DNA of 24,389 bases from Candidatus Nanopusillus sp. (GTDB taxonomy: Archaea; Nanobdellota; Nanobdellia; Nanobdellales; Nanobdellaceae). Position 1 is the first letter of the stretch; the number at the start of each line of letters is the position of its first letter. The DNA lies in the NCBI GenBank assembly GCA_046536775.1, contig JAWDMD010000005.1, positions 1 to 24,389 on the forward strand. Reading direction: 5' to 3'. The position numbers were made by a program, and so were the translations under genes. Below, one piece after another: positions 2,974 to 13,531 of this stretch. The notes beneath the pieces were generated by a model that searched no databases, was not told the DNA's origin, and saw only the letters and a list, made by a program, of their open reading frames with translations.

Positions 2974-5532
2974 ATGTGGCATTCTTTACCTGTTGAAGAA
3001 GTATTAAAAAAATTAAATACATCAAATAAAGGTTTAGATGATTATGAAGCTGAAAAGAGGTTAAAAATATATGGAGAAAATAAAATAAGATTAGAAAAAA
3101 GGAATTTTATAGAAATTATAATTGAATATTTAAAAAATCCATTCCTATTATTATTTTTTGTTGCAGATATATTATCAATTATTTTTGGTGGTATTACTGA
3201 AGGATCTGCAATAACATTATTTCTAATATTGTATATAATATCAGATTATTTACATGATAAAAAATCTGAAAAAATAATAAAATCCCTAGAAGAAAATATA
3301 GAAAGTAATGTTTTAGTTATTAGAAATGGAAAATATAAATATATAAAATCATCAAAAATTGTTCCGGGGGATATTATTGTATTGAAATATGGACAGAGAG
3401 CTCCTGCTGATATAAGAATAATAGAATCTATTGATCTAGAAGTTGATGAAAGCTCTTTAACTGGTGAATCTGAGCCTGTAAAAAAATATAATACCATATT
3501 ACCAAAAGATATTTCAATAAAGGAAAGAAAAAATATGATATTTCAAAATAGTTATATAATAAAGGGAATTGCAGTTGGTGTTGTAGTTGAAACTGGAAAT
3601 AATACATATTATGGAAATATATACAAAAATATAAGCAAACAAAAGAGAAACAAATCTCTCTTACAGGAAGAATTAGATAAATTCTCATATTATATGATAA
3701 TAATTATATCAATAATTGTAATTATATCTTTTGTAATATTATTGATCAAAAATATATTAAATTTATACCAGCTAATAATATTTGTAATAGCTTTAGCTAT
3801 TGTAGTAATACCGGAAGGATTGCCTGCAGCACTAGTATTAATATATACAATAAGTGGCCAAAAATTGGAAAAAGATCATATATATGTAAAAGATCCCAAC
3901 ATATTAGAAGATATTAGCAATATTGATACAGTTGTTTTAGATAAAACTGGCACAATTACATATAATGAATTAATTATAAATAAATTTTTTTATAATGGTA
4001 AACTTTATAATGTAAAATATTATCAGGATAGGACAGAAATAATGTTTAATAAAAAAATAATAAATATTGATGAAGTAAAAGAATTCTTAATATTTTTGTA
4101 TAATTCAATAGAAGACTATTTAACAATAGATATAGAAAAAAATATTGGAGATCCTATAAATTTATCAATATATAAATTGACAAAATATTTGAAGACTTCT
4201 AAATTTTTAGAAAGATATTCCGTAAATTATTTTGATCCTTATAGAAAGAGATCTTCTGTAATAGTAAAATATAATGATAAGAAATATGCAATAATAAAGG
4301 GCTCTCCATCATCCCTTTTATCTATCTCAAAATATATAATAATAAATAATAAGATATTTAAAATAGATAAATATAGAGAAAAAATTGAAAAAATTGAAAA
4401 AAAATATGGAAAAAAGGGTTATAAAATATTAGCAATTGGTATTAAAGAAATAGAGGATAACAAAGAACTTGAAAAAGATATAATATTCCTGGGATTATTA
4501 TTTATAAAGGACAAAATAAGAGAGGGGATTTTAAAATATATAAAAGAATTAGAAGATCTTGATATAAAAATATATATAGTAACTGGAGATAATAAAGATC
4601 ATACCTCTGGAATATTGAGATTATTAAAGTTAGATTATAAAATAGTAGATGCAAATGAAATAAAAAAATTGAATGAAGACTATCTATATAGGTTATTAAA
4701 AGATCATCATGTTATAGTAAATGCAGATCCTTTAGATAAATATAGAATAATAAAAACATTAAAAGATAAAGGTCATAAAGTATTATTTGTTGGAGATGGT
4801 ACAAATGATGCCATAGCATTGAAAATATCTAATGTTGGTGTTTCATTTTATAATGCAACAGATATAGCAAAGGATTCTGCAAATGTTATATTGATGGATA
4901 AAGGAATAGATAATATAACAAAACTAATTATGGAAGGAAAAAGAATTATATACAATCTAAAAGTATATATCTTAGTATTATTATCTGAACTACTTGGGGT
5001 ATTTCTATTTATTTCAATTGGATTTTTTATATACAATCAAATATTTCTACAAGCTTTACAATTATTATTATTAAATTTAACAATTGAAACAATCAATTCA
5101 TTATATATAGGCTCATCAAATGTTAAGGATAAAAAAATGTTAAAGAAAATGAAGGTTAAGATATTTGATAGATATACAAAAATAGAAATAATAAGAAATA
5201 TTATATTTATCGGACTTACTTCCACAATAGTCTCTCTAGCTACCAATGATAATAGCTATATAATAATATTATTCTTAATAGCAACACAAGGAATACTATA
5301 TATCCACTATGAAAAAGTATTCTCCTTAAATATAACAAAAACAAAAGAATATTATATATCAATATTTCTATCAACATTTATAGCATCTATATTTCTAGTT
5401 GGATATTTAAGAGAAATTGTTCAGTTTATAATACCATCTTTAATTGATATAGCAATATTTGCAGTAGTTTCATTATATTTCTTCTTTATATATTCAATAA
5501 TAGAAAAAGTAGAAAATATCAGAGGTATCTGA
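2974..5532 (+). CDS. Cation-transporting P-type ATPase (P2-like, PEGLP M4 motif)
   Basis: Motifs: LTGESEPV (actuator TGES), IPEGLPAAL (M4), DKTGTIT (phosphorylated Asp), TGDN and GDGTNDAIALK (hinge). The protein is 852 aa with N- and C-terminal TM blocks. Ion specificity cannot be called by eye. Confidence 0.9.
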   Translation: MWHSLPVEEVLKKLNTSNKGLDDYEAEKRLKIYGENKIRLEKRNFIEIIIEYLKNPFLLLFFVADILSIIFGGITEGSAITLFLILYIISDYLHDKKSEKIIKSLEENIESNVLVIRNGKYKYIKSSKIVPGDIIVLKYGQRAPADIRIIESIDLEVDESSLTGESEPVKKYNTILPKDISIKERKNMIFQNSYIIKGIAVGVVVETGNNTYYGNIYKNISKQKRNKSLLQEELDKFSYYMIIIISIIVIISFVILLIKNILNLYQLIIFVIALAIVVIPEGLPAALVLIYTISGQKLEKDHIYVKDPNILEDISNIDTVVLDKTGTITYNELIINKFFYNGKLYNVKYYQDRTEIMFNKKIINIDEVKEFLIFLYNSIEDYLTIDIEKNIGDPINLSIYKLTKYLKTSKFLERYSVNYFDPYRKRSSVIVKYNDKKYAIIKGSPSSLLSISKYIIINNKIFKIDKYREKIEKIEKKYGKKGYKILAIGIKEIEDNKELEKDIIFLGLLFIKDKIREGILKYIKELEDLDIKIYIVTGDNKDHTSGILRLLKLDYKIVDANEIKKLNEDYLYRLLKDHHVIVNADPLDKYRIIKTLKDKGHKVLFVGDGTNDAIALKISNVGVSFYNATDIAKDSANVILMDKGIDNITKLIMEGKRIIYNLKVYILVLLSELLGVFLFISIGFFIYNQIFLQALQLLLLNLTIETINSLYIGSSNVKDKKMLKKMKVKIFDRYTKIEIIRNIIFIGLTSTIVSLATNDNSYIIILFLIATQGILYIHYEKVFSLNITKTKEYYISIFLSTFIASIFLVGYLREIVQFIIPSLIDIAIFAVVSLYFFFIYSIIEKVENIRGI

Positions 5533-5575
5533 ATATCATCATGTATCAGTCAACTCTGACCTTCATCACTATTTT
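5513..5575 (-). ncRNA. Box C/D sRNA (2'-O-methylation guide RNA)
   Basis: The minus strand reads AAAAUA-GUGAUGA-AGGUCAGAGUUGA-CUGA-UAC-AUGAUGA-UAUUCAGAUACCU-CUGA-UAUUUU. Box positions are C 5569-5563, D' 5549-5546, C' 5542-5536 and D 5522-5519. The guide spacers are symmetric at 13 nt. A 6-bp terminal stem pairs 5575-5570 with 5518-5513. A TATA-like TTATATTT (5599-5592, minus) lies about 26 nt upstream. The element sits in a locally GC-enriched patch of an AT-rich spacer. Confidence 0.78.
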
Positions 5576-5604
5576 TAATAATATTAATATCAAATATAAT
5601 TTTT

Positions 5605-6732
5605 ATGGATCTTCCAAAAATATCAATTATATTTCCTATTTATAAAAAAAGTAAATATTTGGAAACTAATATTCAAAAAATATTAAAAGATCCTTATCCA
5701 AATAATCTAAAAGAAATAATAATATCAATAGACTCTCCAGAAGATGATTTCCTAAATAAATTAATGGAACTAAAAAATAAATATAAAAATATAACATTAG
5801 TTATATCAAAAGATAGAAGAGGGAAAGTTTCTGCAACTAACGATGCAGTAAAAATATCTTCTGGAGAAATTTTATTTTTCTTTGATTCAGATACTATTAT
5901 TGATTATATTAATATAAAGGGAATTGTTGAAGAATTAAAAGAATATGATATAATAGAATTCTATAAAGAAATAATTAGAAAAGGTTGGCTCGGTTATCTT
6001 ATGTTCATAGAATTTTCTTCATATTTTGACATTATTGACCCTATATTAAATAAAACAAAAAGACCATTATTCTTAAATGGGAGTGGATTTGCAACTAAAA
6101 AAAGCGTATGGAATGATGTGGGTGGATATTCTAGAGTATATGTAGAAGATGTAGATTTTGCTATGAAAGCTGGAAAAAAAGGGTATAAGTATTATATGTC
6201 AAAAGATATAAAATTGCTAATTGAACCATTAAAAGGTTTAAGACAATGGATTGAACAAAGAAAGAGATGGAGTTTTGGACTTATAGAAGTAATACTAAAT
6301 CATCTAGACTACATGGCAGATTTCTTTATACACAATTTGTTAACTTTTATGTTGATACTTCTACTTTTGTATTTACCATACCTAATATGGACTTACATAT
6401 ATATTTACTTGCCGGTCTCTTTCTTATATCAAATTGCTATAAATATATATGAAAACTTATCTAAAAATATTAGCTTTATATATTTAATAATATTAAGTCC
6501 ATCATCTATTTTCAAATTATTTTACATTCTATATCTACCTTTATTATATACAATAATAACTTCCGCTTATATATATTTATTAATTTCAATAAAGAGAAGA
6601 AAGTTATATAATTTTCCTTTATTTATATTATTTTCAATATTATATATACCATTATATGAAATAATAATAATATATGATATAATATATTATGGAATATTTG
6701 AAAAAGCTCCAAAGATGAATTGGAAGGTTTAA
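5605..6732 (+). CDS. Family 2 glycosyltransferase, processive synthase type with C-terminal polytopic membrane domain
   Basis: ISIIFPIYKK is a GT-A N-terminus. Signature motifs follow in order: IDSPEDD (D), FFFDSDT (DxD), YVEDVDF (ED) and QRKRWSFG (Q-x-x-R-W). The last ~150 aa are hydrophobic with several TM helices. Confidence 0.85.
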   Translation: MDLPKISIIFPIYKKSKYLETNIQKILKDPYPNNLKEIIISIDSPEDDFLNKLMELKNKYKNITLVISKDRRGKVSATNDAVKISSGEILFFFDSDTIIDYINIKGIVEELKEYDIIEFYKEIIRKGWLGYLMFIEFSSYFDIIDPILNKTKRPLFLNGSGFATKKSVWNDVGGYSRVYVEDVDFAMKAGKKGYKYYMSKDIKLLIEPLKGLRQWIEQRKRWSFGLIEVILNHLDYMADFFIHNLLTFMLILLLLYLPYLIWTYIYIYLPVSFLYQIAINIYENLSKNISFIYLIILSPSSIFKLFYILYLPLLYTIITSAYIYLLISIKRRKLYNFPLFILFSILYIPLYEIIIIYDIIYYGIFEKAPKMNWKV

Positions 6733-7715
6733 TGATGAAAAAAATAGTAATATTGGGAACTTCATCCTCAATGCCTACTAAAAGTAGAAATCATCCAGGG
6801 ATATTTATAAAATTCAATAAGATGGGGATTTTATTGGATTGCGGAGAGAGTGTACAAAGACAATTAAGAATAATGAAAATCTCACCAACAGATATAGATT
6901 ATATATTAATTACACATTGGCATGGAGATCATGTTTTAGGATTACCGGGTATTTTTCAAAGTCTATCTAGTATGAATTATAAAAAAAGATTAAATATAAT
7001 AATCCCAAAAGAAAATATAGAAAATTTGAAAAGAATAATTGAAGATTTTATAATTCCAATAAACTTTGATATAAATATAATAGAAGCAAAAGATGATCTA
7101 ATAGTTGATGAAGAAGATTTCCAAATATATGGAATAAAGACAAAACATTCTACAATTTCTTACTCGTATTATATTATAGAAAAAGACTATATTAAATTAG
7201 ATAAAGATCTTCTAAAGAAATATAATATAAAAAATAAAGAATTAATTAAAAAATTAAAGGAAGGAAAAGAGATAGAAATAGATGGTAAAATAATATCTTA
7301 TAAAGATGTCGGATATATAAAGAAAGGAATTAAAATTACATATATTACAGATACAATATTTCTTGATAAATTAATTGATTTTGCAAAGAATAGTACAATA
7401 TTAATATCTGAATCCACATATTTTTTCCAACCAGATCTAGCAAAGAAAAATATGCATATGGATTTTTTGGAAGTTAGAGAAATTTTTAACAGAAGTAACA
7501 GTAAAATATTATTATTAACACATTTCAGTCAAAGATATGAAGAAGAAATGGAAAATATAAGAAAAGATATTGAAGAAAAAAATGAAAATATCTATATATT
7601 GGATGATTTTGATGAAATAGATATATACAAAGATAAAATAGAATTAAAATTAAACAAAAAGAAAATTATCTATAAATATGATGAAAAAACCGGACAGGTA
7701 TTAAGACTCGATTAG
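6732..7715 (+). CDS. rnz: Ribonuclease Z (tRNA 3' endonuclease, metallo-beta-lactamase fold)
   Basis: ILGTSSSMPTKSRNHPG is the N-terminal RNase Z motif and ITHWHGDHVLGLPG is H-x-H-x-D-H. LLLTHFSQRY is the C-terminal His motif. The ORF track starts at TTG 6720. I prefer ATG 6732, which overlaps the GT2 stop as TAATG. There is a C-terminal extension of roughly 40 aa. Confidence 0.85.
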   Translation: MMKKIVILGTSSSMPTKSRNHPGIFIKFNKMGILLDCGESVQRQLRIMKISPTDIDYILITHWHGDHVLGLPGIFQSLSSMNYKKRLNIIIPKENIENLKRIIEDFIIPINFDINIIEAKDDLIVDEEDFQIYGIKTKHSTISYSYYIIEKDYIKLDKDLLKKYNIKNKELIKKLKEGKEIEIDGKIISYKDVGYIKKGIKITYITDTIFLDKLIDFAKNSTILISESTYFFQPDLAKKNMHMDFLEVREIFNRSNSKILLLTHFSQRYEEEMENIRKDIEEKNENIYILDDFDEIDIYKDKIELKLNKKKIIYKYDEKTGQVLRLD

Positions 7716-12382: not shown

Positions 12383-13531
12383 TTATTTTTTAATTTCTAT
12401 TAAAAATCCTTTAAGATATGATAATTCCTTATGAGGAAATATAACTTTATGATCTAGAGCCTGATTAAATTTATACAATATTTCAAATTTCTTATTCTTT
12501 CTCCTTATTAATGATCTAATTAATGAATAAAATTTTCTTTCATTTAAATCTTGAGAACATGAAAATGTTATTAAGTATCCTTCATCAATTAAATCCAAGG
12601 CAATAGAATTTATTAATATAAAACTCCTAATTCCTTCTTCATAATTTTCTGCTAATAAATCTGGAGGATCTAATATAATTATATCAAATTTTCTTTTTTC
12701 TAAATAAAATTGATTTAATATTCTATATGCATTACCATTTATAACATTAGAATTTTCTATATTATTTAATTTTAAATTCTTATATAATATACCAACTGAT
12801 TCTTTGTTTTTTTCAATAAAATATTTTTCTTCTCCATTAATAATTATACCGAAAGATCCTGAATATGAAAACACATCTAAAATTTTATCTCCATATAATT
12901 GATTAACAATCTTCCTATTCTCTCTTTGATCTAAAAACCAACCAGTCTTTTGTCCCTTTAATATATTTATATAAAATTTTTTATTGAGCTCTTCTATTTC
13001 AGTTTCATATTTATCCCCATAAATAAACCTTTCTATGGGTTTTAAATAAGATCTTTCTCTCTGTTTTCCTATACTCTTTTCATAAATTGTAATATCATTT
13101 CCATATATATCTATTAATGCATCCCCAATTATATTAATATTTTTATCAAAAAAAGCATTTGAGTTTTGTATTACAAATATATCATTATATTTATCGATAA
13201 TTAAACCTGATAAAAAATCAGACTCCGAATATATTAATCTATAATGATTTTTATAATTTATTATTTTCTCTCTATACTCTTTCGCTTTCTTTATTTTTTC
13301 CTTTATCTCATTATATATATCTATATCTTCATTATATGAAAATATTCTAATATAACGATATGGATCTTTTGGATTTATTATTCCCCAAGCCAGAAAATTA
13401 TTATTATACTTTAATTTAACCAACTCACCAGGTTCAGCTTCGATTTTTTTAATCCAATTTACAGAAAAAACCTGTCTTCCTTTTCTTATCTCTCTTTTTA
13501 CTCTATCCCCAACTTTAATTTCATATTGCAT
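12383..13531 (-). CDS. Class I SAM-dependent RNA methyltransferase with N-terminal PUA-like domain (RlmI/COG1092-like)
   Basis: The N-terminus (REIRKGRQVFSVNWIKKI...GELVKL...FLAWGIINPKDPYRYIRIFS) resembles the RlmI PUA/EEHEE region. ILDVFSYSGSFGI is SAM motif I and FDIIILDPPD is motif IV. The stop abuts the S3Ae stop with zero spacer (12382/12383). Confidence 0.8.
   Translation of the reverse strand: MQYEIKVGDRVKREIRKGRQVFSVNWIKKIEAEPGELVKLKYNNNFLAWGIINPKDPYRYIRIFSYNEDIDIYNEIKEKIKKAKEYREKIINYKNHYRLIYSESDFLSGLIIDKYNDIFVIQNSNAFFDKNINIIGDALIDIYGNDITIYEKSIGKQRERSYLKPIERFIYGDKYETEIEELNKKFYINILKGQKTGWFLDQRENRKIVNQLYGDKILDVFSYSGSFGIIINGEEKYFIEKNKESVGILYKNLKLNNIENSNVINGNAYRILNQFYLEKRKFDIIILDPPDLLAENYEEGIRSFILINSIALDLIDEGYLITFSCSQDLNERKFYSLIRSLIRRKNKKFEILYKFNQALDHKVIFPHKELSYLKGFLIEIKK

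Follow-up and report, generated by a model that had tools for sequence, protein, structure and literature searches.

A candidate double-guide box C/D RNA gene at the ATPase-glycosyltransferase junction of Candidatus Nanopusillus and its predicted sites in 23S rRNA

The window analyzed here is a stretch of DNA of 24,389 nucleotides (nt) from Candidatus Nanopusillus sp. (GenBank assembly GCA_046536775.1, contig JAWDMD010000005.1, positions 1 to 24,389 of the forward strand). At the junction of a P-type cation ATPase open reading frame (ORF) with the ORF of a family 2 glycosyltransferase (GT2), the minus strand carries a box C/D motif (positions 5575-5513) in the order C, spacer, D', linker, C', spacer, D. 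We conclude that this element is very probably a functional archaeal box C/D small RNA (sRNA) gene encoding a conventional double guide, based on direct observation of its box architecture, its conservation at the same junction in related genomes, the complementarity of both guides to 23S rRNA, and the covariation of guide and target. An initial annotation of the window had read a compact archaeal guide RNA at this position, with four perfect boxes, two 13-nt spacers and a 3-nt linker; coordinates and layout are exactly as it gave them, and its identification of the RNA class is borne out by the orthologous junctions, the rRNA targets of both guides and the covariation.

Architecture and conservation of the element

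The features of the locus are as follows.

2974..5532, plus strand: P-type cation ATPase ORF, TGA stop at 5530-5532
5605..6732, plus strand: GT2 ORF, the downstream neighbor, supported by synteny with relatives
5519..5569, minus strand: core sRNA gene, box C to box D, 51 nt, defined by the boxes and the conserved junction
5575-5570, minus strand: 5' flank AAAAUA, read from the sequence
5563..5569, minus strand: box C, GUGAUGA, unchanged or AUGAUGA/AUGAUGU among relatives
5550..5562, minus strand: D' guide, AGGUCAGAGUUGA, 13 nt, pairs with 23S helix 69 UAACUCUGACC
5546..5549, minus strand: box D', CUGA, invariant among relatives
5543..5545, minus strand: D'-C' linker (K-loop), UAC, 3 nt; in relatives the sequence varies and the length is 3 nt
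5536..5542, minus strand: box C', AUGAUGA, read from the sequence and kept in relatives
5523..5535, minus strand: D guide, UAUUCAGAUACCU, 13 nt, pairs with 23S GGUAUCUGAAU in the helix 68 region
5519..5522, minus strand: box D, CUGA, invariant among relatives
5518-5513, minus strand: 3' flank UAUUUU, read from the sequence
5592..5599, minus strand: TATA-like element TTATATTT, putative sRNA promoter, starting 30 nt upstream of box C
5502..5518, minus strand: U-rich 3' flank UAUUUUCUACUUUUU, putative oligo-T terminator, within the ATPase coding sequence of the other strand

All four boxes match the consensus perfectly, with a spacing of 13/3/13. The terminal boxes GUGAUGA and CUGA are able to form the K-turn that defines a C/D sRNA, while the internal CUGA-UAC-AUGAUGA has the short loop between D' and C' that characterizes a K-loop. 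The 13-nt spacers are close to the expected length of about 12 nt, falling within the observed archaeal range and off its 12-nt mode. Judged from the sequence, the transcript probably extends a few nucleotides beyond the 51-nt core on either side. The architecture pattern RTGATGA-N10-14-CTGA-N2-9-NTGATGA-N10-14-CTGA has one match in the window and one in each related locus. It was found in 0 of 300 simulated Markov-1 windows and has an analytic expectation of 2e-6 per window, so that the motif is not a chance product of sequence with 22-25% G+C. Relaxed scans of the window and about 150 kb of related loci found no further C/D sRNAs.

The element recurs at the same ATPase/GT2 junction in 11 related loci (L001-L006, L136-L138, L142 and L143). 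The window encodes archaeal-type genes, including LeuRS, S3Ae and TIM, and its ATPase, for which no exact protein match was found, is 82-92% identical to ATPases of Candidatus Nanopusillus and Nanobsidianus (Nanoarchaeota). The Nanopusillus group consists of tiny archaea of hot springs. In six close genomes the sRNA lies on the minus strand of the ATPase/GT2 junction. More distant carriers, reached through the protein database, have ATPases of 65% (AP031373), 66% (JBMFJD01), 58% (Nanobdella aerobiophila) and 57% identity (JBMFJL01), with a further lineage at 45%, and keep the gene order TIM, ATPase, sRNA, GT2, metallo-beta-lactamase. The boxes remain canonical down to 45% ATPase identity and the spacers are 13/13 in all relatives but Nanobdella (12/12). 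Compared across the close genomes and the window, 5 of 63 columns of the sRNA show variation, as do 19-26% of the coding columns that flank it. The five variable sRNA columns comprise the two nucleotides beside box D', the third linker nucleotide, the first D-guide nucleotide and the first nucleotide after box D. Conservation of the boxes and covariation of the guides in relatives, both named as checks by the initial annotation, were thus observed, the former in the 11 loci and the latter in three genomes (see below). The gene downstream of GT2 (window 6720-7715), syntenic in all relatives, encodes a metallo-beta-lactamase-fold protein that matches the Pfam family Anti-Pycsar Apyc1 at 36.6 bits, below the cutoff of 50, and is more likely RNase Z-like.

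The flanks of the element are less constant. The 6-base-pair (bp) stem that had been noted as closing its ends is present in the window; close relatives show 5 bp and an A-C mismatch at the closing position, and in AP031373, JBMFJD01, Nanobdella and the 45%-identity lineage no more than 0-2 pairs are contiguous. The terminal stem is not conserved, and its 6-bp form is specific to the window. The ends of the sRNAs of Nanoarchaeum equitans are reported to be unpaired (PMC3491384). The TATA-like box claimed upstream does exist as TTATATTT, adjoining the GT2 start codon on the opposite strand, and a strict TATA consensus at a fixed distance is absent in some of the relatives examined. T-runs follow box D in all relatives, and the U-rich 3' flank may act as a terminator by analogy with archaeal terminators and with Randau (2012). 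TATA-like element and U-tracts are compatible with an independent transcription unit, as weak evidence because the DNA is 78% A+T.

At Rfam gathering thresholds only two tRNAs are found in the window. With covariance models, which the initial annotation had suggested running, the matches to the element at permissive thresholds are mostly C/D families (including sR5, sR20, sR3, sR2, sR1 and snoPyro_CD), and no family attains its gathering score. Four of them (sR5 RF01304, sR20 RF01140, sR3 RF01133 and snoPyro_CD RF00095) align over the whole element box for box, yet score 14-18 bits against gathering scores of 40-45, with matching boxes and non-matching guides. Across sR5, sR20, sR3, sR2, sR1, snoPyro_CD, SNORD82 and SNORD11B the highest scores reach 11.6-22.5 bits, where the thresholds stand at 40-50. 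With scores so far below threshold and guides unmatched, the sRNA is not a member of the sR5, sR20, sR3 or snoPyro_CD families.

Complementarity and covariation with 23S rRNA

The lead to a target came from the D guide of N. equitans sRNA26, listed in a supplementary table of Randau (2012; PMC3491384), which resembles the D guide of the window. A scan of metagenome contigs with the full 12-nt predicted D target combined with GGTAAACGGCGG found no match because the nucleotide beside box D is unpaired. The working scan used the 10-nt core of the D target upstream of the universal GGUAAACGG, leaving the D' site out of the pattern, and returned archaeal 23S genes that include a low-G+C group reading ...CACCGGUAUCUGAAUCCCCC...GGUAAACGGCGGGGGUAACUCUGACCCUCUUAAGG. 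The contigs L020 and L124 carry complete 16S and 23S genes, and the uS19 protein of L020 is 100% identical to an NCBI protein of 'Candidatus Nanopusillus sp.'. The same rRNA sites are carried by L129 and L131, contigs from metagenome-assembled genomes labelled N. acidilobi that were retrieved via uS19 and not by the pattern.

The D guide forms 11 Watson-Crick pairs with GGUAUCUGAAU (Nanopusillus 23S 1930-1940), its single best site. The single best site of the D' guide is UAACUCUGACC (Nanopusillus 23S 1981-1991), where the AGGUCAGAGUUAG of relatives forms 11 Watson-Crick pairs and the variant of the window 10 plus one G-U. The proposed comparison of the guides with rRNA has thus yielded an 11-bp site for each. 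At both sites the first and last spacer nucleotides are unpaired, so that of the targets originally predicted the central 11 nt and the N+5 nucleotides stand while the outermost positions do not; the actual sites read CGGU[A]UCUGAAUC and GUAA[C]UCUGACCC. Shuffled guides attain 11 bp in 2-3 of 3000 trials, and the D' site constitutes an independent confirmation because it was absent from the retrieval pattern. Neither guide matches the two tRNAs of the window (best run 4-4.5 bp), as had been stated before. Anticodon-loop targets in tRNA were also considered for the D' guide and were ruled out by stem mismatches.

Alignment to E. coli rrlH places the D site at 1845-1855 in the helix 68 region, with the N+5 position on A1848, and the D' site at 1911-1921 in the loop and 3' strand of helix 69, with the N+5 position on C1914. 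Both sites are in domain IV, separated by 51 nt. The N+5 pairs are Watson-Crick in every Nanopusillus genome examined (U-A for the D guide, G-C for the D' guide), and each guide has the complementarity expected toward an rRNA or tRNA target (8-9 bp or more, with the fifth nucleotide before box D or D' in a Watson-Crick pair). All nanoarchaeal 23S genes examined have UAACUCUGACC in helix 69, the sequence matched by the D' guide, and most other archaeal 23S genes of the retrieved set have UAACUAUGACC.

The sole guide difference between the window and its closest relatives is a GA beside box D' (window 5546-5553, minus strand), where relatives have AG. It yields UUGACUGA, with UGA directly before CUGA, and swaps an A-U pair to U1911 for G-U. 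The D' guide (5550-5562) further contains a UCAGAG complementary to the CUCUGA at 5519-5524 that comprises the last two D-guide nucleotides and box D. This self-complementarity arises because the helix 69 target itself contains CUCUGA, and as a result the minimum free energy (MFE) fold pairs the two RNA ends internally.

Guide and target change together. Since the rRNA-bearing contigs do not overlap the syntenic ATPase region, sRNA and 23S were assigned to the same genome through their ProRS and uS19 neighbors, which gave three genomes:

Nst1 (sRNA and 23S on one 192-kb contig): D guide AAUUCAGAUACCU, 23S target CGGUAUCUGAAUC
AP031373: D guide AGUUCAGAUACCU, 23S target CGGUAUCUGAACC
JBMFJD01: D guide CGUUCAGAUACCA, 23S target CGGUAUCUGAACC

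A guide with ...AAUUCAG faces a target with ...CUGAAU in Nst1, and a guide with ...GUUCAG faces ...CUGAAC in AP031373 and JBMFJD01, a compensatory change that replaces the A-U pair of Nst1 by a G-C pair. A second compensatory pair is found in N. equitans, which has G in the guide and C in the target where Nanopusillus has A and U. The boxes are conserved while the guides track their targets, the evolutionary signature of a C/D sRNA.

Outside Nanopusillus the guides diverge to different extents. In Nanobdella the D' guide, 12 nt long, keeps the register and forms 10 bp with the organism's helix 69. The D guide of Nanobdella aerobiophila AP019769 (L136 5492-5541), AUUUAAACACCU, differs by three transitions from the family consensus and matches neither the 16S nor the 23S (L139) of its genome over 8 bp or more; judged from its sequence it appears to be an orphan, freed from rRNA pairing. 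In the 45%-identity lineage (L143/L144 4027-4077) the D' guide AGGGUCAGAGUUG would form 12 Watson-Crick pairs and one G-U with the register shifted by one nucleotide, placing N+5 on U1915, assuming the helix 69 sequence of the family. The D' guide of JBMFJL01 (L142 3614-3664), AGGUCAGAGAUUC, has a mismatch to the family's helix 69 at position 4, beside the methylation site, so that either helix 69 of that genome differs or its D' guide is impaired.

Proposed function, antisense overlap and alternative readings

From the sequences we infer transcription, assembly of a ribonucleoprotein (RNP) and methylation, including the exact nucleotide modified. Boxes C and D would fold into a K-turn and boxes C' and D' into a K-loop, to be bound by L7Ae, Nop5 and fibrillarin. 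Each 13-nt spacer would then form an 11-bp duplex with 23S rRNA, the two being 51 nt apart in domain IV. According to the N+5 rule, the D guide is predicted to direct 2'-O-methylation by fibrillarin to the A that corresponds to E. coli A1848 in the helix 68 region, and the D' guide to the C that corresponds to E. coli C1914 in the helix 69 loop. Simultaneous pairing at both sites would probably aid local folding of helices 68-69 during ribosome assembly. N. equitans possesses and expresses genes for fibrillarin, Nop5 and L7Ae (PMC3491384, PMC5389701). Helices 68, 69 and 71 are predicted 2'-O-methylation hotspots, with predicted sites clustering near E. coli A1912; roughly half of the C/D sRNAs of archaea carry two guides with targets within 100 nt, and such double guides have been proposed to assist local rRNA folding besides methylation (PMC4644070).

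The closest described RNA is sRNA26 of N. equitans, from the same phylum (Randau 2012, Genome Biol 13:R63, Additional file 2), whose gene (NC_005213, 403464-403522) has the context NEQ455/NEQ457. It shares the compact C-D'-C'-D layout with a 3-nt linker and long spacers (13/14 in sRNA26 versus 13/13 in the window). The D guides are homologous (sRNA26 GGUUCAGGUACCGG versus window AUUCAGAUACCU) and address the same 23S site with compensatory differences (N. equitans CCGGUACCUGAACC versus Nanopusillus CGGUAUCUGAAUC), and both RNAs are double guides within the helix 68-69 region. In contrast, the D' guides are unrelated, that of sRNA26 targeting GGCCGGUAAACGGC, which precedes the helix 69 C targeted by the window sRNA by about 18 nt, and the D-site nucleotide is off by one (N. 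equitans U1955 versus the following A for the window sRNA). No N. equitans ATPase homologue was among the matches of the protein-database search for distant relatives. The linker is 3 nt in 23 of the 25 N. equitans sRNAs parsed, and 38 of 50 spacers are 12 nt long. Because 6 of the 50 are 13 nt long, the homologous sRNA26 being among the RNAs with such a spacer, the initial annotation was mistaken in regarding 13-nt spacers as unusual. The element also resembles the archaeal double guides at the helix 68/69/71 hotspot (Dennis et al. 2015, PMC4644070) in box architecture, in targets less than 100 nt apart, in the location of these targets at the domain IV subunit interface near E. coli A1912 and in the presumed L7Ae/Nop5/fibrillarin mechanism, but differs from their modal 12/12 spacers. 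Neither its guide strings nor those of its targets occur in the supplements of Randau 2012 or Dennis 2015, and our literature search found no C/D sRNA described for Nanopusillaceae/Nanobdellaceae, including Nanopusillus.

The element overlaps the 3' end of the ATPase gene. The core sRNA is antisense to the last 14 nt of the ORF (box D and 10 nt of the D guide), or 20 nt including the 3' flank, and the plus-strand complement of the D guide encodes the final ATPase codons and the TGA stop. All relatives retain the overlap, at 14-27 nt. The ATPase C-terminus reads ...VRGI* in Nanopusillus, with TGA inside the guide complement, and ...IRGV* in Nanobdella, with TAA and a diverged guide, while in two lineages it reads ...SAVSEHLH* in a different frame with an overlap of 27 nt. 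Judged from these endings, the ATPase C-terminus follows the sRNA and not the reverse. The initial annotation correctly saw the overlap, with the TGA, but its view of the arrangement as unusual does not hold: antisense overlap with ORF 3' ends has been described as frequent for archaeal C/D sRNAs (PMC6009581, PMC3491384), and in Pyrobaculum it is a described category in which 40 of 47 overlapping guides keep predicted targets (PMC6009581). As in the Pyrobaculum sRNAs (Lui et al. 2018, PMC6009581), the element is antisense to an ORF 3' end, its overlapping D guide keeps a predicted rRNA target and the overlap is conserved among orthologues. It differs from them in belonging to another phylum, in placing the stop codon of the ORF within the guide, and in the visible variation of the C-terminal residues with the guide across lineages.

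Several points weigh against a conventional methylation guide. L7Ae, Nop5 and fibrillarin are documented for N. equitans only, and their action here would be by analogy; the transcript and its ends are deduced from the DNA, methylation at both 23S sites is predicted, and the targets were read in the 23S of close relatives of the organism of the window. The D' guide of the window has a G-U at position 2 where relatives have A-U. Over the element all Rfam families stay below their gathering scores, and the MFE of the sRNA is no better than that of shuffled sequences (z = -0.97). K-turn RNAs are not expected to score well in such a test. The 13-nt spacers are also off the 12-nt optimum. In vitro work by Tran and colleagues in 2005 reportedly found that spacing other than 12 nt lowers methylation efficiency, which makes the exact nucleotide and the efficiency at each site uncertain; either site, or both, could show lower activity or activity displaced by one nucleotide.

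These off-optimum spacers open the alternative that the sRNA is mainly a chaperone of rRNA folding, with little or no methylation at one or both sites. Such a role has been proposed for double guides (PMC4644070) and would suit spacers of 13/13 rather than 12/12 and two targets 51 nt apart around helices 68-69. The one-nucleotide difference in D' register in the L143 lineage and the displacement of the D site by one nucleotide from that of N. equitans sRNA26 suggest that pairing is conserved more strongly than the exact methylated nucleotide. Nevertheless Watson-Crick pairing at N+5 holds for both sites throughout the Nanopusillus genomes, none of the four boxes departs from the consensus, and in N. 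equitans the sRNAs with 13-nt spacers occur in abundance and are regarded as methylation guides; we consider a predominantly chaperone role unlikely, and it is in any case compatible with methylation and not exclusive of it. More remote is the possibility that the motifs are chance matches in an A+T-rich spacer or a decaying, functionless pseudogene, which would agree with the lack of an Rfam family at threshold, with the non-significant MFE fold and with the loss of the rRNA match by the Nanobdella D guide, which indicates that guides in this family can decay. This explanation is effectively refuted by the expectation of 2e-6, by boxes conserved to 45% ATPase identity, and by two 11-bp rRNA matches with compensatory guide/target changes.

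The antisense position could alternatively reflect a main role in cis control of the ATPase or ATPase-GT2 mRNA, by duplex formation, transcriptional interference or guide-directed 2'-O-methylation of the last sense codon. The perfect antisense match to the final 14-20 nt of the ORF, stop codon included, its preservation at 14-27 nt in all relatives, and the suggestion of such a role, made without test, for the Pyrobaculum 3'-antisense sRNAs (PMC6009581) would all fit. However, the conserved and covarying rRNA targets of both guides suffice to explain selection, and the ATPase C-termini (VRGI*, IRGV*, SAVSEHLH*) change with the sRNA, so that the ORF end looks like a passenger. Overlap of sRNA and mRNA is moreover the rule in compact nanoarchaeal genomes (PMC3491384), and with the whole neighborhood syntenic the conserved position needs no special cause. 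Cis-antisense control as the main role is thus highly improbable. A secondary action on the ATPase mRNA, beyond the rRNA role, is hardly more than a faint prospect: the 3' end of that mRNA carries GGUAUCUGAAU, the same sequence as the 23S target, and the D guide might direct 2'-O-methylation to the A in the last sense codon AUC before UGA, or duplex formation or convergent transcription might tune ATPase-GT2 expression. If this were so, ribosome biogenesis would be coupled to membrane-protein output in a minimal genome.

Read as a double guide for 23S rRNA, the sRNA is a new gene of a known kind and unsurprising to the specialist. It adds a well-supported C/D guide RNA, missed by a model-based Rfam scan, to the poorly annotated ultra-small symbiotic archaea (Nanopusillaceae/Nanobdellaceae), and it predicts two specific 2'-O-methylation sites in helices 68 and 69 of the 23S subunit interface. 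The locus is a clear natural example of a guide RNA gene changing together with its rRNA target, and illustrates how C-terminal residues of a protein can be dictated by an antisense RNA gene. The current understanding of C/D RNPs is unchanged, and the value of the finding lies mainly in annotation and in the choice of sites for RiboMeth-seq.

Other loci

In Nanopusillus and Nanobdella (L020 1415-11783, L124, L129 and L139) the 23S and 16S genes are not in an operon and lie about 6 kb apart on opposite strands. Between them are genes for a FlaI-like ATPase, two FlaJ/T2SSF-like membrane proteins, uS19, a hypothetical protein and the archaeosine tRNA-guanine transglycosylase (TGT), and ProRS flanks the 23S gene. 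TGT is present as two overlapping ORFs of 222 and 184 amino acids in L020 (9038-10245) and as one gene of 402 amino acids in L129-L134; the L020 contig also contains ambiguous bases, and a frameshift in the assembly is a more probable cause than a split gene.

Within the window, positions 198-838 hold adjacent, overlapping genes for a HEPN protein (PF05168) and a minimal nucleotidyltransferase (MNT, PF01909). HEPN-MNT pairs are a classic toxin-antitoxin-like module. The pair is followed on the other strand by an AAA_14/DUF4143 ATPase gene (915-2204). Finally, an ORF adjoining the S3Ae gene (12383-13531, minus strand) has PUA-like and S-adenosylmethionine-dependent methyltransferase domains (RlmI/Trm-like, weak Pfam matches) and likely encodes an RNA methyltransferase unrelated to the sRNA.

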